Shown here piece after piece: positions 35,744 to 55,960 of a stretch of 64,000 nucleotides of DNA. The translations under genes and the position numbers were made by a program. Under the pieces are notes generated by a model. It did not search any database, was not told the DNA's origin, and saw only the letters and a program-made list of their open reading frames with translations. Source of the stretch: Pseudogymnoascus verrucosus (taxonomy: Eukaryota); NCBI GenBank assembly GCA_001662655.1, contig KV460208.1. One strand, given 5' to 3'. Positions within the stretch are counted from its first letter, which is position 1. Every line of letters begins with the position of its first letter.

Positions 35744-35791
35744 TTCCCCGCAAAATTACCCCTGGGGACCGCGTGCTATTCCCCGCAAAAT
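35744..35791. promoter_or_regulatory. Paired CreA/Mig1-type sites (SYGGRG) as a 13-bp direct repeat TTCCCCGCAAAAT
   Basis: Copies at 35744-35756 and 35779-35791, 230-270 bp upstream of the PL4 ATG. Confidence 0.55.
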
Positions 35792-36584
35792 GGTCCCTTA
35801 GACCGGCATGTTTGCAATGCCATATGACTGCCGCTCTGGAAATCGGAGAATTTGTAGAGACGGCCGAAGATATACCGACTGCATTGTTGACCAGAAGGAG
35901 GCACGTGCTCTTAATGGGCCTATATGGAGAAATAGATTCAATTAACCGTCGGGAAATAGGCAACCCTGGTATTCTCGAGTGTTCACAAGCTAGGGCGAGA
36001 TATGGTTAGTTGAAAGTCGAGGGTTTGTATCATATGACTGGATCAGTGGGAAAAGATATGGAGAGAGGGAATGGATGGACTTGCGATTGTGTCGAGGAGA
36101 GCTCACTCCAAGGAGTTTACTTCTAGTCAACTAAGGGGTTACTTGTCACATACGACCATAGACTCACGAGAATTGGGCATCCCGTCCGCTATGCCATACA
36201 CAAGCTTGTAATTCATGGCTTAATACTCTCAACCATGCCAGTAGGCACAGCTTAGAATCTAAATCCCTTGGTGCCTCGAGGGTAAAATTCCAGCCTCTTG
36301 CGAGATGGTTTTGGTCACGTGGCGGCAGCGATCCGATTGGAGGCCAGTACTGCAAGACGGTCCCACATTCTTCCCCATTCCCCGCAACCGTACTCCCTGT
36401 TGTTGCACAAACTGTAACAACAGGGAGTACGGTCCCCGACTTCAAATATTGTGGGGAAGCTTTCGCCTTCTGACCGTTTGATCTGTTTTGAGTATTTGCC
36501 AATAGTACCATAGACGATACAGGATGAACTCGGCTATTAGCCTTTACAGATTATTCCCAAGGACAGCGTTTAATAAAACCAATA

Positions 36585-39500
36585 ATGCCAGTATCGCTGA
36601 GGACAACGGTGTTGAGAAGTACTGCTGGTTCCTCACTTGACAGCCAAACCAACGGAGATGGACGGGGGCGTGCCGGCGGGAATCGAACTAAAGAAAAGAG
36701 GTGCCAATACTGCAGAAGATCCTTCAAGAAGACAGAGCATCTTTTACGACATGAGCGAAGCCATACGAAGGAGAAGCCATTTCGTTGCGAATTGTGCAGT
36801 AAGGGCTACAGCAGACAGTACTCCCTCCACCAAGATCTGTACGGTGGCACCTGGCTAATTATCGTAGTGACACCTTACTTCGACATTCCAAAACCCACGG
36901 CCTTGAGATTTCACATCCCCAAGCAGGCATTACTCTATCGCAGATGAATCACAGTAACCGAGTATCTTCTAAGGACCCAGACAGCGGCCAGGGCGCAGCA
37001 CACTACGCGACCGAACGGCTGCAGTCTAACCTTGACCCACAGCTTGATAGTATTCATGGTAGCCAGTTTGAAATGCCAGATGCAGTATACCCATCTGCTA
37101 TTTCAGGCAACACCATACATACCTTGAGCACAGAAACCCCAATAGGGGTAGACGGCCAAGCACAGTTTACAGGAGAGCCATTCTCTACACTGGCAGGAGG
37201 CCTAGACGAAGTTTCGCCATTAGCTGCAAATAACCTCTGGGGTTCATCACTTATGTCTATAGGCCCAGCTTGGCTCACAGACTATGACTTCGATCTCGAA
37301 GCATTAAACACGTCTGTCTCGGCTGCTGTGGAAACTGCTGAGCCATTGTTTCAGTCTCACATGAACCGAAATTTGGCGCAACAAATGCCACCTTCTGAAA
37401 TCACTCATGATAGTGAAGTCCGTAGGAGCATGAGGTTAGCTAACGACAACATTCATCGGGGATGGTTCTCTCATATTGATCGGCTCAACGACGAGGACGA
37501 TAATAGCGGGTTAACCACAGGACAACTGACACCTGCTATTACTGGGGATCAATATGATATAGGTGATAGCTTTCATCACAGGGTCTACCAACGTCTTAAG
37601 GCACGGTCCATTGAGGAGCCTCTGCCATCCACCCAGTTTCTAGTAAGCTCTACTTGCTATGCTAACGAATTAGAGGGAGGAAATTGACACTAAATACAGA
37701 ACCTATCCGTTCAGATTTACTTTACTAAATTTAATACCATTTTCCCTCTTATTCACGGTCAGACATTCCGCCCGACGCCAAAGAATTCTCTACTTGTGCT
37801 GTCAATCACATCCATAGGTAGCCTGATTCTCGGATCAAAAGCAGCAGCGGCTCAAGGAATTAGAATATTTGAAAGACTCAACAAGGCTATTTTGGGATCC
37901 GTGCGTATATGCGAGCTTACAGAATAACAAGCGTGATGCTAATCGTACCTTGCAGTGGGAAAAAATAATATCTTCCGACTCAACTGAAGCCGTATGCATG
38001 GTACAAGCAGCCATAGTTGGGCAGACATTCGCACTATTATCTGGGGTATGCTTGACCTCTTTGACCCTGAGCCGTTTCTGACAACAGATTCTCCTACAGA
38101 TTCCACAGCATCTTGCTATTGTTGAGGCCCTTCACGGCTCAGTTATTACTGTACGTCTATTATTCACTTTCATAGATTTGAACGCTAACTATGCTATTAT
38201 TAGTGGGCGCGAAGATGCCACATGTTCAACTATAGAATAAACCAACCCCAGGTCGAAAATCTTAGTGGCGCATCTTTAGATGAAGCATGGAAAGCTTGGG
38301 CTAGATCGGAGGAGATTGTAAGGTATGTAGGGGCCACGAACCCGTTATGACTCCCTTCATATTCTAACGACTCTCAGAGCAGTCCTAGGGTTATATATAC
38401 ATGATGCTAAGCTAGCTTGCATGTTTCATCATGAACCACTTCTTCGTCACAACTCAATCATGATGTCAGTGGCTGCTGACGACGACCTCTTTAATGCGCC
38501 AAGCGCAACCATTTGGAAGCGAAAGATGCTTCAGTCCGCATCCCGGTTAGCAGTACGCGATTGCCTACATATGAATCTCGACCACCATGGGACTCAACCA
38601 GTGCCACAAGAGCTGAGCTGGAAAAACAGCCACTTTACAGCATATGTAATACTTTATGGCATCTCTGCAACAATCAACGAGCAGCAACAGATGAATCAAC
38701 TACATCCTGATTCTGCCAATTTTACCAAATGCTTTGATGCCCTCATATGCTGGTATCAAACTTTTGCACAAGATGCCCACCTTTCCGAATCCAAAGAAGT
38801 CTCACGTCCAGACACACTCTGCCTTATGATACTTTGGCACAGTGTATTTATGTGTCTACTAACTAACTTTGACCTTCTCGAACGGGCCATTGGCCGCAAC
38901 GGCGCTGATAGCGCTACTTTGGATACAGACATGGCATATGCTACCAAGTGGGCAACATCTAGGGAGGCTCAACGTTGCATGCTCCACGTACACGCGCTGC
39001 TGAACTCTCTTGGTGCCATGCGGCTTGACGCAGAGGCTGCAATCCACGTCCCGCACTGCCTGTTTCTAGCAGGAATAGTCAGTTATTGCTTCACGCGCTT
39101 CCGTCGGCCCAATCCTGCGCTGCAATCCCCAGCTCACACACGTTTGTCTCGTCCTGAAACTCGTAGCCCTGCGTTACAGCCAGTTGTTGAGTTTCCTGAG
39201 TTCGAAGTACGAGGAGTGCCAATACCGCAGCATATCTTCGGCCCTCCTTCTGTCAACTCGAACGATCATGCCTCGCCCTTGACACCTGATGGTACGAGCA
39301 ATTCTTTCAACATTCAAGGAGATCAGACAACGCGATTCAGGGCCACATCAGGTGCAGGTGCAGCTATGATGTGTACCTTAATTGACATGCTCCAAAGAGT
39401 CGGCCATTGGGGTATTGCACGAACATACGCTGCGACGTTATCGACACTCGTGTGTGTAGACAGCGATGAGGACTGGAAGTTTATCTTGAGTGGTTACTAA
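36585..39500 (+). CDS. Two-finger C2H2 transcription factor with fungal-specific TF (Fungal_trans) domain, multi-exon
   Basis: CQYCRRSFKKTEHLLRHERSHTKEKPFRCELCSKGYSR(H)/DTLLRHSKTH, then LPSTQFL, YFTKFNTIFPLIHGQTF, WKAWARSEEI, LYIHDAKLA and FHHEPLLRH, over about 7 introns. Confidence 0.9.
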
Positions 39501-41197
39501 CAAGGAGGTTTCCACTAGCAAACACCATATATAATGTATAGAAGTAGGCCGGTAACTGAGCTTAAGAGGGAAAAGTGTCCACAGAAAGAGAACAATATAC
39601 CTCAACCATGAAACCTGTGGTATCTAAGGGGTAGTCGAAGATCCGTGGCTCTAGAATGTCTCCCATATTCTAAACTTAGGCATCTGTAGCGCCTCATTTG
39701 GTTGTGCTAGATATTTGTGTTGCTCTGTTCTAGCTTTGAGTCGGTTTCAGTAGACAGCCATGTAGTTGATTATGGGGGACTTACCCTTTTAAATCTGCTT
39801 AACTCTATACCACATACGAACTGCTGAGTAACTTATCTCGAGCTCCCTCCGCCATGTACAAGTATGATTTCGCACCATATTGTCTGAACCACGTTGCATG
39901 CTCGGTCCCTCTCAGACCGTCCCCCAAGAACTTCTGTATCTCGGTGGAGTCTGTCAGTTAATATGGCATATGCGAAAGCCGGGTTAGCTCGATCAGTTTG
40001 CTCTCGCTGATACTGTCCTGTGATTTCTAGTCGCTCTTGGCCACGGCTTCACTCGCCGGAAGCGAATATCTTTCTCACCTTTATTAGTGGGAAAGCCTTT
40101 GAGAGACGGATGAGCGTCTCCTGCCGGCAAGTCATCTTTGCTTAAGTGACGGCAGTGAGAAAGTGAGTTGGGGGGATAAAAGAGCGTAGAAGCTGGCTGC
40201 TTCTTGAAGACTTTCTGTGGCTGTGGCAATATGATATAGTAGAGCGTATTTAGCAATTATTATTATTCAAGAACGAGTAAAGTAGATTGAATCAGTATCT
40301 AAAACACTCGGGGTGCATCTAGATAGATAGGACCAGGAGTTCGCAGACCAGGAAGAGCTCAGCTCATCTACAGGGTTGGGTGACATATGGAATTAGTCTA
40401 GAGCTCAGCAGAATATGGTGGACAACGGGGGACCATGGGACTAGACCGTGGGACTGCGGGGAAGTGGGAAAACGAGGGACAATTGTTTAATGACGAAGGC
40501 TAGTCTAGATATGGGTTTACCCCTCACGAGATACTTCCTGGGAACAAATTTTAGCCATTGTGTTCCATCCATGAGTAGCTTATCTACGCAGAGAGTTCTG
40601 AGGTATTACGGAGAGGGTCATATTGCGTAGCATCCTGAGTAAGCCCAGTTACCTTGATTTTTTACGCTGTACAGATATATTTTTTGGACAAGGAAGTGTG
40701 GAACGAGGAACGAATGAAGTATGTGGGACAACGAATAGGTCCCACAAACTAGGTGCGGGTGCGACGTGCGTTCCCTTGGATGGAACCTACCACGGGACGG
40801 ACGACCATCTCTGGCAAGGTCAGATTAAATTCGTTTACTAGCTGCATCTCCCTCTGGTATGTGTTTCTCGGCGTTGCAGTGTCGACCTAGAGTCTCCTTG
40901 AGTCAGGCCAAATCGTGTTGCGCCACCCGCAGGACGGAAGAGGATGGTTTTCCTCTGTCCTATGAGCCCGATAAAAGTATGTCACTGAGGCCCTCCTATA
41001 TGCTATACGAAAAGATGTTAAAAGCAAGGATTCCCAGTCCATAGGTCTTATGTTTCGTGCAAGGCTAGTATCCGAACAAAAATCACCATCTTCCCACGTG
41101 CCACTCTCATATCTCTATAGCAAAGACACACACCTTTCTATTCTATTCTCCCTTCTCCGTTCTCATACCTTTATCATCATTATTATACTTTACAAAT

Positions 41198-43053
41198 ATG
41201 AGTTCAGATGAGTTCCTGGAAATACTGCCGGGGACAGAGGTGATGAAAGATCACGATGGCATCCATTTCATTCATGACCGGAACTCCACACAAGGCCTTA
41301 TTTTGCTTCCAACTCCGTCCGAGCATGCCCATGACCCGCTGGTAAACTTAAAATAATTCCGTAGCTAACCTAGGCAACTTCGCTAACTTCCAAAAGAACT
41401 GGAGCAGACTCTGGAAATTGGGTGCAATCGCCAATCAAGGAATATTTGTGATTATCAGCGTCGTGACGAATCTCTCGATTGCCCCTTTAACGCCAATCTA
41501 TATGAGCGAGTGGAACAAGTCAGTGTCACAGGTAGCGCTTCTGGTACGTTTGACATTTCTCCTCAATATTTATATTCACAGCTAACCTGGGTTTTTCAGA
41601 CTGGAGCATGTATCATCGCCCTTGGATATGCAAATTTCATCATTGTCCCTGCCTCAGATATCTTTGGGCGTCGAATAACTACCCTTAGTTGCGGCATTAT
41701 ATGCATTGCAGCTAACATATGGTCGGCAACCGCAACATCATATCAGTCATTTCTTGGTGCTCGTATACTTGGTGGACTTGGTGCGGCTGCTAATGAGAGC
41801 ATTATGACTATGGTCGTGGCAGATATTTTTTTCCTCCATGAACGTGGTTCATACATTGGACTATACTTGTAAGCAACTTACATCGACTGAAATAATCGAT
41901 TACTAACGCGCTAAAGTTGGTGCTATTTCATGGGGCTCTTTGTTGGACCGATCATTTCCGGCAATATTGCTGCTCACGTCTCCTGGAGATGGTTCTTCTG
42001 GGCTTGTACAATAGCTCAATTTCTCAATGTCATTGTTATGGCGGCGCTCTTTCCGGAATCACGCCGGCCACATGAGATGCAGATTTTGCAGATAGCTCCC
42101 GCCCAGTCTTCGGAAGGGTTAACTGAGGAAGAGAAGGGACTATCAAGTCAGGTTGAAGCTACTAATGAGACCATCCTAGCGGACAAATACCTCGGCCGCG
42201 GAAAGCCCAACAGGAGTCAATTCAGCCCTTTCCAACCTATTGATCATCAGGCGGCAAAAGCTATATTTCGACATATCGTAACGCCTGTTCAGATTTTCTT
42301 CTTTCCTATTGTCCTGTGGGCAGCAATGTCCATGGGCGCAGCCGCCAATGCGTTGCTCGCAGTTAACCTAACACAATCGCAAGGTCTTTCAGCGCCTCCG
42401 TACAACTGGTCTCCGGGGAGTGTAGGATTCGCCAACTTTGCACTTGTCGGCGGAGGTGTTATAGGTCTGGCCATTGCTGGTCCATGGTCGGACTTAGTAA
42501 TCATGCGGGCAACGAAGAAGAACAACGGAATTAGAGAACCAGAAATGAGACTGGCAGCGTTGTATCCGTTTATTGCAGCAGCGCTAGTCGGCTTGGTTGT
42601 GAGTTTACCTAGATCTACCTATAACCTGTATACTACTTACTGTACTAGATTATTGGAGTTGGATACGATCGACATTGGCCCTGGCAAGTTATTGTGGTGC
42701 TAGGTTTTGGTCTCGTTGGCGTCCAAGTTGTCAGCATCCCGACGATTGCAATTACTTATGCAATTGATTGCTATAAACCTATCGCTGGCCAGATCATGGC
42801 TATATCGACCGTCTGTAAGAATACTTTTGGGGTAAGACATCTGACTTCCTGTGATGAAGTATTGTCTAACATAACACAGTTCGGAATGACCTATTACTAC
42901 AACGACTGGGTAGTAACTTCTGGATTCACACCGCCACTCATGATGATTATGGCCTTGACCGTAGGGTTCTCACTTGTTGGAACTATTCTATTTCCATATT
43001 TTGGCAAGAGTCTGCGCAGGTGGACTCGAGCTTCGAAGGTCCACAGCTTTTAA
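41198..43053 (+). CDS. MFS transporter (DHA1/HOL1-like), multi-exon
   Basis: LPGTEVM, PTPSEHAHDPL/NWS, FGRR, DIFFLHERG, SWRWFFW, NNGIREPEMRL and YAIDCYKP motifs, with many hydrophobic segments. Confidence 0.92.
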
Positions 43054-43154
43054 ACATAGTCAAGCTGTATAATTGTAATTTTGGTTCCTTCTTAATGCGA
43101 CTTAGATCATAGTGTCGTGCAACCAATGTTACGATGCTACGATGTAGATGCTGT

Positions 43155-43262
43155 GTCCCACCACCCTAGCGTCCCACCATCCTAGCCTCCTCCCATCCAA
43201 CTGTCCCACCATCCTAGCGTCCCACCATCCCACCATCCATCTCACTGCCCCACCATCCCATC
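43155..43262. repeat. Minisatellite of GTCCCACCATCCTAGC-like units upstream of the dioxygenase
   Basis: GTCCCAC at 43155, 43171, 43203 and 43219 (16-bp period), plus degenerate CCCACCATCC copies. Confidence 0.9.
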
Positions 43263-43490
43263 CGGGTGACATATCCGGTATTTGCGGGGGAGCTCCACAA
43301 CGATAGAGGGGAATAGGATAAGTCGTTCGATTGCCAAAGTTTGTCGCCGTCCAGTGCAGTTGATAATCAAATTATATATCGACTATCCCTAACTGTCGTT
43401 GCGAAAGTTCAAATCGCATCATCTACAACGGTCTCCTGCCTACTTAGAGTTCTAACAGATTACCTGACGCGAATAGTAGAAGACCGCAAA

Positions 43491-44609
43491 ATGGCCGCCG
43501 AGAAAGCCTTCACGGGAAATATGAAGGACCTAACAAGCGAGAACATCACTGAAAATGTGCAAATTATCAACTCACAATGCGACGACCGCAGGTTGAAATT
43601 CCTAATCAATCGCTTGGTCCTACATATCCATGACCTTGTTCGCGAGACACGGCTAAGCACCAAGGAGTGGATGGCAGCGATCCATTTTCTGACGGAGGTC
43701 GGCCAAATTTGCTCGGATGCGCGACAGGTAGGCGAAAGCATTAAACCTTCTTCAGTCGTTATGTGAGCAATGCTGACTTACGACATAGGAATTCGTGCTT
43801 CTCTCTGACATTCTCGGCCTGTCATTATTAGTCGATTCTGTTGACCACCCTTGCCCGCCGGGCGCCACTGATCCAACTGTGTTAGGCCCATTCCATACAG
43901 AGGAAGCACACGAGATTGGCCACGGCGAAGGCCTCAGCCATGATCCAGATGGAGAGCCATGTCTTTGCATCTGTACCGTGAAGGACCTTGACGGCAAACC
44001 TATCGAGGATGCGAAAGTCGACATCTGGGAGACAGATTCCAAGGGCTTCTACGACGTGCAATATGCAAATCGTGATGGGCCAGATGGACGCGCGGTTCTG
44101 AGGAGCGACGCAGAGGGAGTGTTCTGGTACAAGGCGATTGTGCCGGTGCCGTATCCTATTCCGCATGATGGCCCAGTCGGAAAGCTGCTGGGAAGGTTGA
44201 AGAGACATCCGTACAGGCCAAGTCATATGCATTTTATGTTTGAAAAGGACGGATTCGATCCCTTAGTTACGTAAGTCTATATTGCTGATACTTTCTCCTC
44301 TCTCCCTTCACTTAACAGAAAAGCTGACTGATCAGCGCCCTCTATCTTAAAAACGACCCATATATCGACTCGGACGCTGTTTTTGGCGTCAAGGAATCGC
44401 TGGTTATCGAACTAGAAGAGGTTACGGACGAGAAGATGGAAGAGCAGTATGGAGTCAAGATTGGCACCAAACTCCTCAGGTATAACTTTGTGCTGGTTAC
44501 GAATGAGGTGGCTATGGAGCTAAGGTTAGAGAAGGCCGAAGATGCGATGAAGGCACAAGCTATTGATGTCTTGTTCATCGACGGCCTGCCCGTACCTGCT
44601 TTAGATTAG
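43491..44609 (+). CDS. Intradiol ring-cleavage dioxygenase, hydroxyquinol 1,2-dioxygenase type, 3 exons
   Basis: ITENVQIINS...LHIHDLVRETRLSTKEW, RQ/EFVLLSDILGLS and TVLGPFH. Fe ligands in FYDVQY, PYPIPHDGPVG and RPSHMHF, plus DAVFGVKESL. Stop TAG 44607-44609. Confidence 0.93.
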
Positions 44610-45345
44610 GGGAAAGGGGATTTATAAAAGAATTGACACAGTTGCATATGCAGTATTGCAATATTATATTTATTATTTAACTCAGTAACTTAAATTTTAA
44701 ATATAAAAGATAGAAAAATATACCCCTAGGTGACGCGCGTTCCATCGACACAGTGGTACACATTCCGATTTTATATTGCGACCTCTGGTTGAAATGCGGA
44801 CAAGTTTCTTTCATTCTATATGTATATCTGTAGCCTTTTTTATTTATTTCGGGATAGAGTGCTATGGTGTGACACCACTAATTTGTCACTTTTTCTATAG
44901 TGTTGGTTGTTGGAGCTAGGTTTGGTTGTGCATACGGACTTTGGATCATACTATCAAAACGTTACTTACATCCTTCACCTTTCTTCCGTTCCTTTCTGTT
45001 GCAGCCGCTTTCCAGCACGCACATGCCGACACGCGATCTAGGGTGACAGGTTAGTTGATACTTTACATCTGGGGTATAGAACCTTCATGACCTTATTGCT
45101 TTTCAAAATGGTAACTCGAGTTCTGAATTTGCAGTTTTCATCATTGCATTTCAACATTATGTGATTGCTAGCAATCTTTATCATGATTTCTGATACGTAT
45201 TGATTATATTGTAGCCAACATCTAAGCTCTCGAGGTACCGATAGTGTAAAAAAACTTCAAAATGGAGGGGTGGAAATGTGTGTAACATTTTTGTCATTTA
45301 TTAATAATTTTTGTGTAAGTTCAGTCATTTTCGCACTCACACCCC

Positions 45346-47563
45346 TTAAATGCTACCATATATACAATTCGGAACAAGATCCAACGCTTCCCGCAACTCC
45401 CCCACATTTTGGCATGATGCAAACACCATCCGATCCCATCTGACAATCACATATACCACACTCGCGCCAAGATCCTTCTTGATGCGATGTGGGTCGTAGT
45501 ACAGCGGTGCTGGCCTAGTCAAGTTTGTAGCGAGGGCGGCATCCGTGATCCCAGCCGCCGTATACTCTTCTGCGTCAAGGATGCGCACGCATGGCGTACT
45601 TCTGTTTAGTACCTTAAGATCCGGTGAATCTACCGGCACGCTCCCAAACTGGTTGTCGACCACGTACGTGGTTTCTGCGGTGTTCAGAATAGTGCCATTT
45701 TCAATCTGACGCGAGACGCTTTTGATGTTGCCCACTGCGAGAGGAAGCTGGTCAGGTGAATCGAGTAGAGCCACTATTTGGAAACAGCCTTTCTTTTCAG
45801 ATCTGAATATGGCGTCATCGGTAAACATTGGAGTGGACGGCGCGGGCCCGTCAATTGGGGCACAGAAAACTTGAGGGAACGACTTCCCACCACCGAACTG
45901 AGGCAGGAACGGCATGCCTGCAGCCCATTCGTACTTCGTCATGCCTTGGGCTCTTGGACCTTGCTCTAAGGACCTCTTCCACGAAGGCACGAGCTGGACG
46001 GCCCACAGATACAAATTTCGGAAGAGTGCTTTGATGCGGGATGGCTCGTTGCAGTAGTTTCCGTTCGCAATAGTTGCAGCCAAGGATCGCTCGAGTTGCT
46101 GCTTGCGCTCCAAGTACCAGCCTCGGAAGAGGAAATCATAGTCTTTGCAGGATGGGCTGGTAGCGACACGGAGTCGCCAAGCAAGGGATATGGCATCTCG
46201 AAATCCGGATGCGATGCCTTGTCCTCCAACTGTAGCGGTTAGAAGATAATTCGACCATGGATCATAATATTATTGCTTACAAGGTGGGAAGACGTGAGCC
46301 GCGTCACCGCAAAGAACTACACGTCCTAAAGACCAACGATTGCAGCTTCTTGCGGAGAACGTAAACGGGCGAGACCTAATGTATTCTATACAATCTTCTG
46401 GCCAAGACACATCTTTGGAAAGGCTGTTCTATAATCAGCATAGAGAAAGGTAAAATGTTGGTTACGGGCCTGCATACCCATATTTCTTGCCTGGATGCCG
46501 TAGGTAGGGTAGGATTATCTTCTTCGTCTCGTCTTGTGTTGACATCTGGTTGCCATCCTCTCCATCTTTTACGACAAATTCGAAGCGCCAAAGACGATCT
46601 TCCGCTAGTCCAAAACGACCACAAACCGCGGGCCTCGCAGGATCGCAAATAAAATTAAAATATGGAGGGAAAAATAAGTCGTATACCTGTTCCGGCGCGT
46701 AGCCTAGTTCCCAAAGAGGGAATTCCGGATGGGATTTAAGAGTTGGAAGAGTCAGGCGCCAATTCAGAGCAACCCATTCTGCCTCATAGCGGAAGCTTTC
46801 ACATATCAGCTAAAATAAAATAAAAACAACCGTAGACACTTACCCGTCACTTCTCTCCATGACAACACCGCGAGGTTCGAGATACTTCTTTCTCGTGTAG
46901 CCTGTCTTTCCGTCTGCACCAACAAAAAACTTTGCGCTGACCTTTTGCGTTTGGCCGTTGCCATCCGTGTATTCGACGTGGACGAGATTCTCGTCTTCTG
47001 CAATAGCAGTGATTGTCGAATTTGGTCGAAAATCGCAGAACGTCGTGTTCATGGCGAGCCTCAAATGCTTCTCCAAGATTGGTTGTTTGTGAGACATGAA
47101 TCCAACATGGCCGGTGCCCCCTGTAATCTGTCCCGATGGTCAGAACAACCTGACGAAAATGTTCGGGTAGGAGTGTCTCACAGAATTCTCATTGAACTGC
47201 AGGAATGGCTTGCACGTGAGACCGTTTCCTCCATTAATAAACCGAAATAATCCGAGAGCTTTAAATTGGGTTAGCGCTGCAAACCAGAAAACGCATCGTT
47301 CTATAGTCCGCATCGTGCTTTAGAGCCAACCTACATTGACCGACTTCTCGGAATAGCTCCTCATACTTTCCTACGCCCTGAACGCATCGAATGCCATCCT
47401 CATCCAGAACAATGCCCCTAGGATCCGACGTGATAGCAGACTCTTTCTCTAAGATAAGATGCTTCACACCCAGCCGTCCCAAATTAGCTGAGAGCAGTGC
47501 ACCTGTTGGACCACATCCGCAAATGATCACCTCGAACTCTTCAGTGGCTGTGAAGGAGGGCAT
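45346..47563 (-). CDS. FAD-dependent aromatic monooxygenase (group A; MhpA/3-hydroxyphenylpropionate hydroxylase-like), multi-exon
   Basis: GCGPTG Rossmann motif, DPRGIVLDEDGIR, VGADG, WRFEF and LCGDAAHVFPP/FGGQGIASGFRDA. The exon joins checked are in frame. Confidence 0.92.
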
Positions 47564-48531
47564 GTTCAGGGATCGTACTGATGGGATTGACAGGTTCTAC
47601 AAGACTGTCAACTGGCGTGTTGGTAGCGCAGGCCAGATGAAGAGGAGAGAAGACCGTCAATGTTCTTGTATAATTATTCAAGATAAGGGGATAAAATGAA
47701 TAGAACACCTCGAGGGCACGAATAACGGCCCCAAACTTTCTATAAGAATGATATCGGAAATAGAAACGTACGACCCGAGTCTGATAGCCTAACGAGGCCA
47801 TCTTTGACTTTCAGATGCAGGTCGAGCGGCGGGGACGATATCGCGTAGAGGAGGGTCCCACGACATAGCAAACACCAGACATTAGATACCGCATAGGAGG
47901 GGCAAGTGCGGGGAATAAAATTATTAACAAGCGGGTGGTTTCGAGGGTGATAGACTTTGTAAAAGCGTCTCCACCATCATCGGTTACTTTTTGCAAAATG
48001 TAACTGCAGCGAGGGCCACAAGAGGGGCGCTTGTTAGATGGGAGAGCGAATTAAGGAGATGTACACAGTAGTGGGCCCATGATTCCGCGCCATTCTCAAA
48101 CCTAAGAGTGCGTTATCCCGCCGTCCCACCAAGCTGTTATCTCCACATCCCCAACGTCCCGCGACTTCCCACCCGGTCCCGCAGTCCCAGCAAGTCTTCC
48201 GTACACTTGTATTACGGAACCTGACTCCAAGTTTCATGTGGCACCCTTTGGCTCAGACTCAAACTTTTACTCGAGATATTTAGCCCCGTACTTTCTTTTA
48301 TCTTCGCCTTCTAAGAAAGGGCTTTTGATGGTAGGGATAGACTCTTCTGTCGCTAGCACGAGTGGGAGCCGTAAATAGTCATTAACGAAAAATGAAATAT
48401 TCTTGTTCGTCCTGCAACGATGAGCATCACAGTCTTCATTCGGGTCTAAAATAGGGGCATTTATCTATTGTACCTATTGTACTTGCTGGACGGTTATAGC
48501 AGGATGAAAGAAAGATTAAATACCACACTGG

Positions 48532-49614
48532 TCACAAATTGGCTTTGGCAGGCTCACCAGCCCATGCCCTGCGTATTAGCTCCCTAATACCCTCCCTTTC
48601 AACCTTCCTCGGGTTCCAGTACGGATTAGAAACGGCGATATCGGCCGCCTTGTCTACGTCCTCTTCGTTCATCCCGAATTCCTTCAATCCACGCTTAACC
48701 TGCAGACTATCGAGTAAAGCATTCAGGCCCTTTATCGCATCTCCGTCACTATCTGGTAGTGCCCCAGCTAACTGATTCATGACTCCTTGGATTTCTGGGG
48801 CGTTGTATGCCAACGCGTGCGGCAGTACTATTGTGTGTGTCTCCGCGTGTGGAAGATTGAACGAGCCACCAAGAGTATGACAGAGCTTGTGATGGAGACT
48901 CATGCCAACAGAGCCAAGACAGAGACCGCAGAGCCAGGCGCCATATAGTGCCTTTGTTCTTGATTCAGTGTCGTTTGGTGTCCGTATAATTCGAGGGAGC
49001 GAGCAGGCAAGCGCTTTTGTGCCCTCGAGAGCAAGCAGGGTTATAATCGGGTTGCCGTTTTGGGCATACAGAGCCTCCACCGCGTGAGCAATAGCGTTGA
49101 CACCGCTGGTAGCCGACATAGAAGCTGGGAGCGACATTGTGAGGTCAACGTCATAAATTACAGTCTTGGGAAGGATTTTTTGATCGCTTTTTGTCTTCTT
49201 GACTCCGTCAGCAGTTTCGCCAAGGATTGGCGTCATTTCCGAGCCTGCATATGTCGTTGGAATACAGATGTGAGGCAACCCAGTTCGGAAGCTTATTGCC
49301 TTTCCGAGGCCAATCGTGCTGCCGCCACCAATGGAGATGATACTATCAGCGGAAACTGATTTTGCATATTCAACTGCTTTTTCTGTGACGTTCGTAGGCG
49401 TGTGCATCGTCGCCTCTGTGAATATTCCCGCGATGTTGCCCTTTAGAATTTTCTTCAGCATCTCGGCCTGTGAGGCTTGTTGAGCTGTTGAGAGGAGAAG
49501 AGGCGCTTTGAGGGATTGCCGCGAGATTTCGGCGGGGAGTTCTTGGATGGTCCCTTTGCCAAATATGACATGAGCTGGCGAGGCATTGTATATGAAGTTA
49601 TTAGAGAGGTCCAT
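48532..49614 (-). CDS. Maleylacetate reductase (iron-containing ADH family)
   Basis: HVIFGKG, ATMHTP, GGGSTIGLGKAI, IPTTYAGSEMT, SGVNAIAHAVEALY, HHKLCHTLGGSFNLPHAETH and NPYWNPR. Intronless. Confidence 0.93.
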   Translation of the reverse strand: MDLSNNFIYNASPAHVIFGKGTIQELPAEISRQSLKAPLLLSTAQQASQAEMLKKILKGNIAGIFTEATMHTPTNVTEKAVEYAKSVSADSIISIGGGSTIGLGKAISFRTGLPHICIPTTYAGSEMTPILGETADGVKKTKSDQKILPKTVIYDVDLTMSLPASMSATSGVNAIAHAVEALYAQNGNPIITLLALEGTKALACSLPRIIRTPNDTESRTKALYGAWLCGLCLGSVGMSLHHKLCHTLGGSFNLPHAETHTIVLPHALAYNAPEIQGVMNQLAGALPDSDGDAIKGLNALLDSLQVKRGLKEFGMNEEDVDKAADIAVSNPYWNPRKVEREGIRELIRRAWAGEPAKANL

Positions 49615-50145
49615 TTTTGTTGCTGCTGCTCGTCCTGCTATGTTGGTTGGTAGATATCTTGAAAGCATAGCAACACAATGGTTGAAGACAGAAGCCTACG
49701 AAATATTTCCATAGCCCTGTCCCTCGGGTATAATAGGGCCCTTAGGATTGTAAAGGGGCTATGTCATTATCCGAAAGGTGAGATGGCCTGCCTTCCGGAG
49801 AGGGGAAAAGGGAGGGGTCACACAAAGCCAGGCAATGCCTACTGTGGTGGATTCGTGGCAAAGCCCGTGTCGGCTATCACGTGATACAAGGATGGGACCA
49901 TCACCACAGATCCCACCCTTCTATCACTAACTACCTGTTCCGCTGTTGATAAACTTTTTCTTGCCATCTAACGCGCCATCTCCCGTTTGCATCCATCTCC
50001 CGTTTGCATTGTCCAGGGGGGTACTGTGGTGCTCCTAATGACGTGAAAACAATCGCTACTAGATCTCGCAAAATATCCAGATCTAGTTAGCACCGCGAGG
50101 TTGGACAGGGTTGAAGGAGCTAGACGGCATCTTCGGGATCGTTGG

Positions 50146-50272
50146 CGAGCCTCGTCCAGCCTACCTCGTTGCGGCAAGATACACGAGACGAGCCTCTCGC
50201 ACTCACCTCGTTATAGTAAGATACACGAGACGAGCCTCTCCTGGCCACCTCGTTGTGGTAAGATACACGAGA
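50146..50272. repeat. Three 42-bp tandem units, each with an internal inverted repeat CTCGT-N13-ACGAG, directly upstream of a TATA box
   Basis: Units start ACCTCGTT at 50163, 50205 and 50247, with consensus ACCTCGTTRYRGYAAGATACACGAGA(CGAGCCTCTC). TATATAAAAG follows at ~50304. Confidence 0.9.
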
Positions 50273-50500: not shown

Positions 50501-51049
50501 ATGTCTTCTAACACCCCCACCACCGCCGCTGCCGCTACCACGGCCATGCCCTCAGCAGACTCAAATCCGCGGGTTGTCGTGACGGCGCACGCAGCAGACG
50601 GCACATCTATTTTCGGGGCGGATAGCGAGGTGCCGCTGTTCTATCCCTTCGGGCCCGCAATCTCGTCGTTCGCCGTTTTCGACATCCGCGGAACGGTGCC
50701 AGTCAATAACCAGGAGGCTACGGGGGAGTACGCGTCAACGATACCACGGTGCCCGCCTGGCGGCGTCATATTCTGCATCACTAACATCCCTGGCAATTTC
50801 ACAGTGCCGATGCACCGGACGCTGAGCATCGACTATGCCGTAGTCCTTACCGGTGAAATTGTTATTAAGCTCGACAACGGCGATGAGAAGACAGTCCGCA
50901 CCGGCGAGTACATCATCCAGGGCGGCGCCAACCACCAGTGGATCAACCGCACCGGCGAGACCTGCCGCATCGTGGTCGTCATGGTTAGTGCCGAGAAAGT
51001 CAAGTTGGCGGATGGGACGGAGCTAGAGCAGACGGTCTTGAAGAGATAA
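50501..51049 (+). CDS. Cupin-domain protein (cupin_2; VirC/SrdD-like family)
   Basis: PRVVVTAH...G.S, PMHRTLSIDYAVVLTGEI and GEYIIQGGANHQWINR. ATG at 50501 in TTCAAAATG context, downstream of the TATA box. Confidence 0.88.
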   Translation: MSSNTPTTAAAATTAMPSADSNPRVVVTAHAADGTSIFGADSEVPLFYPFGPAISSFAVFDIRGTVPVNNQEATGEYASTIPRCPPGGVIFCITNIPGNFTVPMHRTLSIDYAVVLTGEIVIKLDNGDEKTVRTGEYIIQGGANHQWINRTGETCRIVVVMVSAEKVKLADGTELEQTVLKR

Positions 51050-51139
51050 TAGGGCGGTGGACGCAGATTTCTGGATATATTTTTGAGCCTATCTTCAAAT
51101 TTTCAAATTGTTCAAATAGAGTGGGGGCGGTAAACAGGG

Positions 51140-52847
51140 TTATATGATGCTCTTGTCGCCTAGTGTAGCTTTCATCCCAGAGTAATCTCGAATCCGTTCA
51201 AATACTCCCCACGCACGTTCCTTTTGCTCTGGTGTTGTCACACATGTTCGGCCTTTAACCGTATGTATCGGCCAGAGAAGTAGATACCCGCCGATTCCGC
51301 GGCAGCGAGGCGGGCCATCCTTGACGTTATGTGCTTGACCCATGTGATTAACATCTCCGAAAGTCTGGGGAACGGTTGATAGAATTTCGTCTGCAAGCCA
51401 CTGAATCGTTGAGGTACACTCAGCGATCGTATTAGCCAGCGCCTTTTCTTCCACATCATCTAGGTTCGGGGTCTCTAGCGCGGCCTTTGAGCATTTTAGA
51501 AGCTGCCCTAGGAAGATTATGCGCGCTGTTCTGTGGTAGTTCCATTCGTAGGCCATCCAGATATCAGGATGTAGTTGGAGCGTGTCCGTTATACCGCGCG
51601 CTGCTGGTTCTAGATCCGGCCTCTCGGACACTGCCAGAATCTGAAACGACCACTCTGATGTCTTCCGCCAGCTGACTGCCGTTTGATCAAGTGAGTACAG
51701 TTCCATGATCATGTCGACGATAGTGGACACCGGCAGGCCTCTAGCATTAATAAGGTCTAAGAGCATTCGTGCGCGCTTGCACGTGTCGTTGATTTGGTCC
51801 ATGTTCTTCTCTAGACATACATAAGGTTCATTATCATTAAGCTGATCGAGCCAGTTTGTCGTCCCTAGAACTGGAGGCATGTTATAGGACAGCTGCTGTT
51901 TTTGCTTCACGTATGTTAGCGTAGAAAAAGAAAGGGGCGTTTGGTTGCTTACGATTCTGTGTTGGGCAAGTCGGAAAAGACTCCAGCCTCGTGAGTTGTA
52001 AACCATGTCTGGGCCTCGCAAACGGAGGATCTGCGCCATTCCTTGAGCATGTGATCCTTTAGAGGCTAATCCAGGTGTGTATAGAGTCTATGTATATGAG
52101 TGGCTGACGATTTCACGATCAATCTTGTGGACTTACCTCAAAGATGTCAAGAATAACTACGGTCATTAGATCATAATCATCTGGGACTTTTCCAGGTGTA
52201 GCAGCAAGCGAGTCTCCAAGGGCAGAAAGCGCCATGCCATAGCACTGTAATGCCTTCCTCACAAGTACGTTACTGTCCTGATCTTTCGAAATATCGGCAT
52301 ATGCAGCCGCCCGTATTGCCCATCGTAGAGCGTATCGGCCATTGATGTTGACCTCTTGGAACATGCACGGCAAATGCTCAAGGAACCCAGGAGAAGATGT
52401 CTGATTGCATGGGTAAATGACGTACTTGTCCATGAAATTATCAACGGCTTGGTCTTCCACACGAGCCCGCATCCCAGAAGATAGTCCTTTAAGCCAGGGA
52501 TGAGGGTTCTTGAGGTTGATGCTAGCGGCCTCTCCAGGAGCCAGCGCCGAAGGATCTCCATTCTGGTCGGACACGGAAGACCACCGAGAATCTCCGCCGA
52601 CTGATCTGCTGCGCTTCTTCACAGGTGGTTGGGAAGAGGCCTGCGAGCTAGGTGATAACAGCAATTGTGACGCTCGTGCATGCTCAATCACTTTGTCAGT
52701 CTCGTGCCTGAAGATGATGGAAGCCTCGTCTCGATACCCCTCACAGACTTCATTGCGATTGACACATCGCCGGCATGAGGGCCGGCCCTCGTCGCAGCGA
52801 ACGCGACGTTGCTTGCAGCGGAGACATCCGCGACTCAGACGTCCCAT
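51140..52847 (-). CDS. Zn(II)2Cys6 transcription factor with Fungal_trans_2 (DUF3468)-type domain, 3 exons
   Basis: MGRLSRGCLRCKQRRVRCDEGRPSCRRCVNRNEVCEGY, DYDLMTVVILDIFE, HAQGMAQILRLRG, WNYHRTARI and GGYLLLWP. Confidence 0.92.
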
Positions 52848-53374
52848 CGGAATCAAGTTGGCTCATGTGCCAAGGATTCTAGTTCTATGACAGTTCCTTC
52901 ATTCGAAGTTGAAGGGCCTTTGGTGTGGGTGGGATAAGGTGTGGTTCACTAGGCGTGCGTCTTAGCGTAACGTTAGGTTGTTATATTTAGAGTTTACAGG
53001 TACCTTAGCGGTGTTGGATAAATGAAGGGTTATATTAGTCGTTTTAATAGAGGTTTTCTGGTGTTTTTGGTACCTTGAAATCAATGAACCTCCATCTGAT
53101 GATCCTCCACCCAATGATTCTCCAATAATCACTCACTCGATGACCACTAATCCATTTATGGTGAGTAAATCACGCCTCACAACATCATCGGCCACAGTTA
53201 GCAACCACAACTACAAGTTAAACCATAGTGAGGAAACATATGGATATACTAATGCTCGTAGAAGGCGTACTTGGAAATATATTATTATAAAGCTAGCGCC
53301 ATTCCTGGTCGTGAAGTTGAGAGCGAGCTAATCGTCGTCGTAGTTAGTGCACATACAGTTCTATATACCAGAGT

Positions 53375-55402
53375 TTATACTTCCTTATAGTATAAATTCT
53401 TGATCTTAGACCCAATGCCCCGTTTATAAGCTTCGCTCTCCTCATTTTTATCAGTGGAAGGCGCTGGCGCTGGCACCTCCAATAGCTCTCCATCCAATCC
53501 TGTATTTGTGACCGCGTTCTGTTGTTTGCCAAGGTAGTAATCTGGTGAAGCAATTCATTGATATTAGCTAGCGGCCAGACAAAATTTAAGAAATAAGAGG
53601 CAGAGAGGAGCTGTGGTATACTCACTTGGCATTAAGCAAGAAAAGATGACGGGAATGACGCTCAGCACGCAGACCGTAGTGAGGATGAGGCCATTGGTAC
53701 GTGTGTATGCGGCCACCGCACCCTGACGAACCGGATCCTCCCAGCCATACTCTGTTCGTAGCACAGAGATGGAGCCATAGATCTTCCTCAGTGTCGAGTC
53801 TGGCGTCCCTACTGGACACTCCTCGCGCATGTACCTGAGCATGTGCTTTGTCCATATTGTCGTTGAAATAGTATATCCGACTGAGTTGCCAATAGTGGCG
53901 CACAATGACGCGATGGCGATAGCACTTGCTAAATCTTTATGTGGCACTGAGGCCTGCGCACCGAGACGAGCACCAAAGACGCTCACGGAGCCTATGCCGA
54001 GCAGGATTTGTGATATAGCTAAGGCAGCTGTTGACTGTGTGCTGCGCATGTTTGAGCCCATGCTGATGGAATATCCGATCAATTTGATCACCCCTCCGAA
54101 TACCATCATTGTCTTGTAACGGTGGGTGAGACGCTGGATGACCCCAGCAATGGGCCCCACGAAGGAAATCGTCAGGGTTGTGATACCTAGGAAGATTGTC
54201 CATGCATAATTAGACCACTCTTTAATGATATACAGATACGACGAGAGATAGTTCTCATTACAACCTGATGCCATCAGGTTGAAGACGTCGACTATGACAG
54301 CGTACATGAAGGCCTTGTTGTGTAGAATGGCTCTTGTCATGACTGGCTTGGGTGCAATGTAGACTTCGAAGAGACTAAAGAGTATGAGGATTACAAAACC
54401 ACAGATAATCATAGCAATCATACTTGCATTTTCCCAACCTCCGTTGGCTGACTGCGCAAGATTGAGAGGGAGAAGGATTAGGGACCAGGAAAAACCAAGT
54501 AGGATGATTCCTGCTAGGTCAATGTCGATAATACCCTGCCAGGCAACGTGGAGATATGTTGCAGGACCTTTAAGATTACCGCAACTTTTTTCCGTGGCCA
54601 TAGGGTTGGCCATGCTGACCATCCCAAGCTTGTATGCTTTTCTCTGCATCCCATATAGCGTCCAAATAGCGGGAATCATTAGGACTGGCATCATGATAGC
54701 AAACATGCCTAAGCCCCACCTCCACTTTTCGGGGATGAACGCATCAGAGATGAAGCCGTTTATGAATGTGGTAATAATAAAAGGAGCAAGCAATAGGCCA
54801 TTCCAAAACACTCTCCACTGCAGGGACGTCAGATCCGCTACAATGACGTTACCTAGGAAATCCAATCCTGATTTACCGAAGGCCGTGAAGCAGATGCCTA
54901 TAGTGTAGGCGGCGATGTTGTCACACGTGGCTGCCACGACAAAACCGATGACATAGAACACCAAAACCACAACATAGGTAGTCGGCCGCGATGTGATATC
55001 TGCAAGTTTGCCAATGAATGGCTTCGAAACCCCACGGATGATAACACTGGCAGTGTTGACAGCGCCGAGCTCTGCGTGGTGGCCAAATGAGGAGGATGCA
55101 ATCGCATTGAACTGCGTTGTGATACCGAAGTCGAGAGCATAGCCAAACTTAGTCAACCCAATTGAGACTACCAGTGTGATGAGTAGTAGTTTTCCCGATC
55201 TGCTCTCTGATAGGACTTTGTTGAATGCTTCGACTTTCCTAACACCTGGATCTGCTAGTATGGTTCCATCCGTGGCGTACAGTTGCTCACTGCTCCCATT
55301 GCTACCATCGCGAATTTCCTCTTGTTTTTCAGTGATGTGACAATCCCTACTAGCTGGTCTGCCGTGCTCTGTCGTCCCCGGCTCAATGGCCTCCTTCAAC
55401 AT
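53375..55402 (-). CDS. ARN/SIT-family (siderophore-iron transporter-like) 14-TM MFS transporter, 2 exons
   Basis: GVRKVEAF, KPFIGKLADITSRP, VADLTSLQWR, WRWGLGMFAI, DIDLAG and QASVPHKDLA. Last exon NYYLGKQQNAV...KEV*. Confidence 0.88.
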
Positions 55403-55960
55403 CTTGCTCGTACGCTCGAACGGCTAGTGGCCAGGAAGTCGATATTGATGATCAGGGTATCGAAATCTCCCAAAACCTGAAGTAAGGGTGGTGTGATGCG
55501 GCACTGGAGCTCAAATCGAATAGTGGTGTGAACATGCGGAAAATCTTGCCCACTATGCAGGAAATAGCTTAGTCATATTATTTCTTGGCTGATAGAATTT
55601 TAGGTTCTCCTGCACAAGAAATAGACTCTTGCTGCCTTGGAATCAAGTCTAAAGGCAATTCAGACTTAAAAGGCACAATGATGGGGTGTATATGTGACAG
55701 GCGGGGTTGTGCTAGTGTCCGAACCGAATGGACATTAACTACCCCTGAAACCATGAGGATGGAGAGACAAGGAGAATTCTAACTTCAAGCAAGACATGAT
55801 TTTGTTAAGTTGGAAGATTTAGTTTTAAATTGACAGTTATGGGTCCGAAGACTCTATTTCTAAATCACTGTTCCGTTGTGCCGATCCAAAAACCGTGAAG
55901 CCATCCAACAGCCCATGGCCAAAATTAATAGCAACGACACAAACCAAATTTCCACCACAA

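Follow-up and report, generated by a model that had tools for sequence, protein, structure and literature searches.

Do the promoters of a fungal aromatic catabolic gene cluster share a regulatory word, and is this word read by the transcription factor encoded in the same cluster? The question is raised by a stretch of 64,000 nucleotides of contig KV460208.1 (assembly GCA_001662655.1) of Pseudogymnoascus verrucosus, referred to in the following as the window, which by its gene content appears to carry an aromatic catabolic cluster of the hydroxyquinol branch with five genes between 36.5 and 49.6 kb (Table 1). An original prediction, made from the nucleotide sequence alone, had proposed that the word GTCCCRC (GYGGGAC) recurs in the cluster promoters and matches the recognition code of the two C2H2 zinc fingers of the cluster regulator. 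A shared promoter word, G-T-GGGAC, was indeed observed. Its most plausible reader is the cluster-encoded C2H2 regulator, a reading to which we give about an even chance.

Enrichment of GTGGGAC in the cluster promoters

The promoter set consists of the five intergenic regions of the cluster, which were delimited by gene boundaries and not by the motif (5116 bp), and was compared to the remaining 58884 bp of the window. In an unbiased k-mer count, GGGAC ranked first of 507 5-mers (27 copies, 6.65 expected), GTGGGA was the top 6-mer (18 copies, 3.3 expected), and GTGGGAC the top 7-mer (10 copies, 0.48 expected). The proposed motif is hence the top-ranked word of the cluster intergenic DNA. The positions predicted for GTCCCAC and GTCCCGC are all correct, and the roughly five scattered GTCCCAC copies noticed elsewhere amount to exactly five.

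Counting a minisatellite upstream of the dioxygenase gene as a single event, the enrichment persists with 7 copies of GTGGGAC versus 0.43 expected (p 1e-5), 24 copies of GGGAC versus 6.6 (p 9e-7), and 14 copies of GTGGGA(C) versus 3.3. Against a crude background outside of open reading frames (ORFs), the expectation rises to 0.81 for GTGGGAC (p 3e-3) and is 6.1 for GGGAC (p 2e-5). When the five interval lengths were placed at random outside of the cluster 20000 times, no placement reached 24 GGGAC copies (maximum 17), and shuffles of the promoters that retain their own dinucleotide composition yielded 10.4 +/- 3.3 copies (maximum 22) versus the 27 observed. Within the cluster, the densest 500 bp carry 7 copies, compared to 3 in the rest of the window. 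The enrichment is local: across the whole window, GTCCCAC occurs 15 times versus 7.11 +/- 2.72 in shuffles, a count reached by none of 100 shuffles, and the window-wide excess of the degenerate GTCCCRC was not significant (20 versus 14.06 +/- 3.63, with 6 of 100 shuffles reaching 20).

Taken by themselves, the MFS region (GGGAC 10 versus 2.19, p 1e-4) and the monooxygenase region (6 versus 1.25, p 2e-3) are significantly enriched, while enrichment upstream of the regulator gene is modest (5 versus 1.53, p 0.02). In case of the dioxygenase promoter, all four copies reside in one tandem array; the p-value for GGGAC is 0.003 in the raw count and 0.43 with the array collapsed, and that for GTGGGAC is 0.036 with the array collapsed.

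Among the 27 aligned promoter GGGAC cores, G occurs at position -2 in 19 and T at position -1 in 13. Furthermore, C is favoured after GGGA (TGGGAC 10 versus 2.5 expected, TGGGAT 3 versus 4.4). Due to these preferences in the flank and at the last position, the element is written as G-T-GGGAC. It forms groups in four of the five cluster intergenic regions, 150-770 bp upstream of the start codons and in both orientations. A fixed dimer spacing was ruled out, with start-to-start distances of the inverted pairs of 14, 28, 23, and 16-18 bp.

The cluster-encoded C2H2 regulator

Exon 1 of the regulator gene matches the profiles zf-C2H2 and zf-H2C2_2. Finger 1 reads C-QY-C-RRSFKKTEHLLRH-ERS-H with the helix K-T-E-H-L-L-R, and finger 2 reads C-EL-C-SKGYSRHDTLLRH-SKT-H with the helix R-H-D-T-L-L-R. 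The H codon of finger 2 is interrupted by an intron, near the 3' end of which a CTAAT was read as branch site. In the alignment to the Bisporella orthologue P0005, residues 19-70 pair with exon 1 and exon 2 picks up at residue 72, which confirms both helices across the intron as they had been read in the original prediction. The first in-frame ATG is located at 36585. An ATG at 36524 was rejected as start of the regulator, since it is out of frame. It opens a frame of approximately 38 codons (36524-36640) that extends beyond 36585 and that, if transcribed, would represent an overlapping upstream ORF.

Neither of the two large exons matches PF04082, because the domain falls in the small exons between them. 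Fungal_trans scores 27.7 bits in orthologue P0001 (97% identity), with a cut-off of 23, and 53-56 bits in P0005, P0008, and P0014. The C-terminal exon, which is the largest, shares 97% identity with V501_05921, a protein of Pseudogymnoascus sp. VKM F-4519 annotated as hypothetical. Within the filamentous Ascomycota, homologues of the regulator are spread over four classes (Tuber, Cladophialophora, Metarhizium, Leotiomycetes). The contact positions do not vary among the 16 homologue models that have intact fingers, which include models of Bisporella, Cladophialophora, Tuber, Choiromyces, Xylaria, Metarhizium, Dactylonectria, and Trichoderma. They are K-1, E/D+2, H+3, and R+6 in finger 1 and R-1, D+2, T/S+3, and R+6 in finger 2.

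The zinc fingers are missing from the gene models of the closest orthologues (P0001, P0002, P0003, P0006). Two named Pseudogymnoascus models start 3' of the finger exon, and two other close models deviate at the N terminus. Among more distant models, there are several in which either finger 1 or finger 2 is broken; the affected models also include P0004, P0016, P0018, and P0022. Due to these finger-less gene models, automatic annotation gives only Fungal_trans and thus conceals the DNA-binding class of the regulator. A search of solved structures with P0005 returned generic C2H2 proteins only (ZNF568, Aart, CTCF, WT1, ADR1) and no solved finger with these helices. The best 150 matches of a representative search with the finger exon are long many-finger proteins (11-53 matched stretches) and are uninformative on the spread of the contact residues.

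In the regulator promoter, 152-198 bp upstream of the ATG, a near-perfect palindrome is situated at 36387-36433, with 21-nt arms of 95% complementarity and a 5-nt loop. It is flanked by a copy of a second word, TGCGGGGA (see below), and a GGGAC core. Folded as RNA, it reaches -37.9 kcal/mol (z -10; none of 200 shuffles is as good). The palindrome is single in the window and therefore not a repeated mobile element here.

Agreement between the fingers and the word

By the canonical zinc-finger code, these contact residues predict 5'-G(T/C)G-G(G/A)N-3'. The part GYGGR is found, on either strand, in 2.3% of all 7-mers, and its agreement with the top word is therefore not trivial. The flanks of G-T-GGGAC correspond to the G-Y-G subsite as finger 2 would predict. 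To this extent the proposed match between fingers and word is supported.

A similar combination of architecture and word is described in part of an article on Zas1 of S. pombe (PMC6028546), where chromatin immunoprecipitation sequencing and electrophoretic mobility shift assays assign to Zas1 the word CCCCAY/RTGGGG, usually with at least two copies per target promoter. Like Zas1 as portrayed there, the cluster regulator combines two N-terminal C2H2 fingers with a C-terminal Fungal_trans helical domain, and the cluster element is a 6-bp G-rich site with multiple copies near promoters, GTGGGA being identical to GTGGGG in five of six positions. In contrast, the Zas1 word ends with GG and the cluster element prefers A-C, and Zas1 controls condensin and cell-division genes; the likeness is one of architecture and word. 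Sdd4 (Ypr022c) of S. cerevisiae, given as the closest budding-yeast relative of Zas1 (PMC6028546) and likewise of this architecture, binds CCCCAC/GTGGGG, which resembles the word of Mig1 (PMC6548505). The last bases of its word differ from those of the cluster element, and Sdd4 is not known to be linked to aromatic catabolism or to a gene cluster.

Since the contact residues are invariant in the homologue models and the words of Zas1 (RTGGGG) and Sdd4 (CCCCAC) are similar, the specificity would be a property of the family and not, as had been claimed, a code of the cluster's own. If the regulator reads the element, the finger 1 subsite departs from the family word, because GTGGGG is not enriched in the cluster promoters.

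The regulator-monooxygenase neighbourhood

The regulator and monooxygenase homologues bear consecutive locus tags in Cladophialophora carrionii (G647_02915 and G647_02914) and tags two apart in Metarhizium humberi (MHUMG1_09753 and MHUMG1_09751). Contigs of equal size carry the two homologues in Tuber borchii (167664 bases) and in Bisporella sp. (31140 bases). Adjacency was thus observed for at least 4 of the 24 listed regulator homologues, compared against the 120 listed of 177 monooxygenase homologues. This count is a lower bound, since only cluster representatives are named and 120 of the 177 monooxygenase homologues are listed. The conserved adjacency points to the C2H2 regulator as the regulator of this pathway. 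The reductase gave no information on the neighbourhood, because its conservation is too high and paralogues exist; in the closest strain, the one named match is V501_01280, a paralogue with 72% identity.

Weighing the reader of the element

Several observations weigh against a cluster-wide element that is read by the cluster regulator. Four of the ten exact GTGGGAC copies derive from the single minisatellite, and the dense group upstream of the MFS gene (40427..40480) includes a 13-bp tandem duplication as source of two GGGAC cores. The regulator promoter contains one exact copy (p 0.096). The reductase promoter contains none, and its matches with at most one mismatch number 5 versus 2.35 expected (p 0.09). 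Such near-copies had been noted there and are present at 49892 and 49910, but they do not exceed chance, since matches of this kind are at chance level in the whole window (170 versus 157 +/- 12.5 expected). The predicted "complete autoregulated regulon" is overstated in view of the reductase near-copies and the one exact site of the regulator promoter. As for the fingers, the code fits only GYGGR and leaves position 6 open, so that the preferred A-C is not predicted; a lysine at -1 usually goes with G or T. GTGGGG, the word closest to the code prediction, is not enriched in the cluster promoters (2 versus 2.6 expected; ATGGGG 3 versus 1.4). The contact residues are family-wide, and other family members in the genome, if any, could read the word as well. 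Finally, the adjacency was derived from locus tags and contigs of equal size and not from DNA.

Alternatively, the element might be a real cis-regulatory site with a different reader, i.e., another C2H2 protein similar to Zas1 and Sdd4, a repressor of the CreA/Mig1 type (at least for TGCGGGGAA), or the Zn2Cys6 regulator encoded at 51143-52862, 1.5 kb from the reductase gene. We consider this unlikely. CreA/Mig1-type proteins have the consensus SYGGRG and, like the cluster regulator, are two-finger C2H2 factors with a G-rich hexamer as site. Their involvement is suggested by the second word, TGCGGGGA(A), usually TGCGGGGAA(T), of which five copies (35745, 35780, 36379, 40455, 47907) occur in three cluster promoters and none elsewhere in the window, with 0.13 expected in shuffles of the same composition. 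Three of them, at 35745, 35780, and 36379, are located in the regulator promoter (35745..36386, minus strand), and the distance between the word and a GTGGGAC copy is often no more than approximately 50 bp. With GCGGGG, the word includes a perfect match to SYGGRG, and it fits the finger-readable G-Y-G-G-G-R as well. Judged from these letters, its reader could be the regulator fingers or a CreA/Mig1-type factor. The motifs of Sdd4 and Mig1 are furthermore described as alike in part of PMC6548505.

However, SYGGRG is not enriched in the cluster promoters (16 versus 18.6-20.9 expected). With A at position 6, GTGGGAC itself contains no SYGGRG site, and the competition with carbon catabolite repression suggested from its closeness to the CreA site is not supported. 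No CGG/CCG dyad of the Zn2Cys6 type passed the enrichment screen, which required 5 or more copies distributed over 3 or more promoters, and the conserved adjacency to the monooxygenase gene favours the C2H2 regulator of the cluster.

It is still less probable that the element is a by-product of local sequence history without regulatory role, arising from minisatellite expansion, small tandem duplications, and low-complexity promoters rich in C/G-runs. In addition to the 16-bp array and the 13-bp repeat upstream of the MFS gene, a 13-nt repeat, TTCCCCGCAAAAT, yields two of the TGCGGGGA copies, and GGGAA and GGGGA are approximately 2-fold enriched as well. However, with the array collapsed, the 7 exact copies (versus 0.43) are distributed over four separate promoters, those at 36360, 40723/40739, 47855, and 48123 lie outside of any repeat, and most other GGGNN words are not enriched (e.g., GGGCG 2 versus 9.1 and GGGTC 5 versus 7.3).

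That the clustered G-runs are G-quadruplex-forming promoter elements instead of protein-binding words is very improbable: two of the seven canonical motifs of the window (loops of at most 7) coincide with the densest site clusters (40450-40478 and 48149-48174), but 36360, 40723/40739, the minisatellite, 47855, and 48123, which make up the majority of the copies, are situated outside of such motifs, and the GGGNN words pooled are only approximately 1.2-fold enriched, whereas the preference for G-T-GGGAC is strong.

Proposed mode of regulation and known systems

With the cluster-encoded regulator as preferred reader, the element with the core GGGAC and the consensus G-T-GGGAC would be the shared cis-regulatory site of the cluster. 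Finger 2 (R-1, D+2, T+3, R+6) would contact G-T-G and finger 1 (K-1, H+3, R+6) G-G-A. Several regulator molecules may bind per promoter, and the copy in the regulator's own promoter would provide feedback. According to PMC6028546, Zas1 forms a dimer in vitro and possesses a short activation motif of acidic/hydrophobic character, which is located between its fingers and its helical domain and binds the latter. By analogy, the Fungal_trans domain of the cluster regulator might restrain an activation motif until an aromatic inducer or signal frees it. In this scheme we infer binding by the regulator, activation instead of repression, an inducer, and autoregulation. It is tempting to speculate that an old regulator with C2H2 fingers and a helical domain, travelling with a flavin monooxygenase, serves as a dedicated self-activating switch of the hydroxyquinol branch and reads the derived G-T-GGGAC instead of GTGGGG, although we regard this as possible rather than probable.

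The logic of such a system, a dedicated regulator with repeated sites in the promoters of its own cluster, is familiar. According to the part of a 2025 review on A. niger considered here (PMC12388069), only a small number of regulators is known for aromatic catabolism in fungi; those named there are TanR/TanX, SdrA, WarA/WarB, and FarA/FarB, with none for the hydroxyquinol branch. The SdrA gene is located beside its targets cdcA and padA, and clustering is stated in this part for SdrA only; the title of a reference in the same review describes SdrA, WarA, and WarB as Zn2Cys6 proteins (PMC12388069). Similar to these A. niger regulators, as far as they are portrayed there, the cluster regulator would be dedicated to a set of aromatic-catabolism genes; unlike the Zn2Cys6 proteins SdrA, WarA, and WarB, it is a C2H2 protein. 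The class of TanR/TanX and FarA/FarB is likewise Zn2Cys6. Adr1 of S. cerevisiae (2adr) is among the solved-structure matches of the finger region. Its site is TTGGRG, and its finger helices probably resemble those of the cluster regulator. The overall architecture and the site of Adr1 differ from those of the cluster regulator.

In the open-access literature searched, no account of this regulator or site was found, and the terms transcription factor, zinc, and C2H2 do not occur in PMC7842363. If the speculation on a self-activating switch is true, no other regulator/operator pair would have been described before for this branch of filamentous fungi, and the pair of promoter and factor, responsive to aromatics and ready for use, could serve biosensors or lignin valorisation. 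A regulator/site pair readable from sequence would offer a direct handle on how fungi turn the pathway on, and due to the invariance of the contact residues across distant homologues the prediction is testable in many genomes.

Table 1. Genes of the cluster and positions of promoter sites in the window.
Position	Strand	Feature	Basis or content
36585..39500	+	regulator gene, two C2H2 fingers and Fungal_trans (PF04082)	finger profile matches, orthologue alignment
36818..36867	+	50-nt intron GT..AG, interrupts finger 2 after S-R-(H), with D-T-L-L-R-H following	
41198..43053	+	MFS transporter gene, several exons	MFS_1 and Sugar_tr matches
43491..44609	+	intradiol dioxygenase gene, predicted hydroxyquinol 1,2-dioxygenase type	Dioxygenase_N and Dioxygenase_C matches
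45349..47563	-	flavoprotein aromatic monooxygenase gene, several exons	FAD_binding_3
48535..49614	-	maleylacetate reductase gene, single exon	Fe-ADH matches
36360, 40448, 40723, 40739, 43155, 43171, 43203, 43219, 47855, 48123		GTCCCAC, cluster promoters	
48156, 48176		GTCCCGC, cluster promoters	
3722, 24967, 30868, 56673, 57885		GTCCCAC, elsewhere in the window	
21746, 27799, 39048		GTCCCGC, elsewhere in the window	39048 within the regulator coding region
36360..36366	-	GTGGGAC, 225 bp upstream of regulator ATG	
35765, 35793, 36432		GGGAC cores, regulator promoter	
40427..40480	+	dense site cluster, ~720-770 bp upstream of MFS ATG	GGGGGAC, ATGGGAC, GTGGGAC (40448), TGCGGGGAA (40455), GTGGGAA, GAGGGAC; six G-runs in 54 bp
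40723..40745		inverted pair GTGGGAC-N9-GTCCCAC, 459-475 bp upstream of MFS ATG	
43155..43230	-	minisatellite, period 16, 4.8 copies, consensus GTCCCACCATCCTAGC	4 intact sites, 272-336 bp upstream of dioxygenase ATG
47855..47914		GTGGGAC (47855, -) and TGCGGGGA (47907, +), 292-345 bp upstream of monooxygenase ATG	
48123..48190	-	site cluster, 560-625 bp upstream of monooxygenase ATG	GTGGGAC (48123), GCGGGAC (48156, 48176), CTGGGAC (48184), GTGGGAA (48166)
49892..49916		one-mismatch copies ATGGGAC (49892) and ATCCCAC (49910), upstream of reductase	chance level

Enzymes of the cluster and flanking genes

The five best solved relatives of the dioxygenase (8r2v, 8r2x, 8r2w, 1tmx, 3n9t; E 5e-50 to 3e-38) are hydroxyquinol or chlorohydroxyquinol dioxygenases and PnpC, while catechol enzymes follow with E 1e-20 or weaker; by these relatives the protein is closer to hydroxyquinol than to catechol dioxygenases. 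The reductase matches solved maleylacetate reductases over its full length (3w5s, E 2e-108; 3hl0, E 7e-108), and many of its homologues bear the name maleylacetate reductase. Further maleylacetate reductases with 72-74% identity to that of the cluster occur in Pseudogymnoascus genomes (V501_01280, VE00_09163, V499_01483); the cluster reductase is therefore one of at least two paralogues in this genus. In case of the monooxygenase, the orthologue P0145 shares 89% identity, and solved relatives of P0145 are only distant (best E 5e-17). This FAD_binding_3 protein is a candidate for the upstream aromatic hydroxylase that would supply hydroxyquinol.

No Rfam family was detected between 35000 and 51000, and the 1.7-kb spacer between the regulator and MFS genes contains no hidden gene, with no open frame longer than 95 aa. 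On its left side, the cluster is preceded by genes without relation to aromatic catabolism (9677-35339). They encode a TPR/DnaJ protein, a separase (Peptidase_C50) adjoining a 1594-aa open frame, a DUF5321 protein, a Sir2-family protein, and a cation-efflux transporter, together with a PL4 polysaccharide lyase, the gene of which appears to share a divergent promoter with the regulator gene.

Directly past the reductase gene (50501-55423), a cupin gene is located on the plus strand, followed on the minus strand by the gene of the Zn2Cys6 regulator (51143-52862) and another MFS transporter gene (53567-55423). These three genes could extend the cluster or form a unit apart from it, under its own regulator. 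The divergent promoter between the reductase and cupin genes contains two tandem repeats, situated at 49976-50009 (two copies of 17 bp, 100% identical) and at 50146-50272 (three copies of 42 bp, 80% matches).

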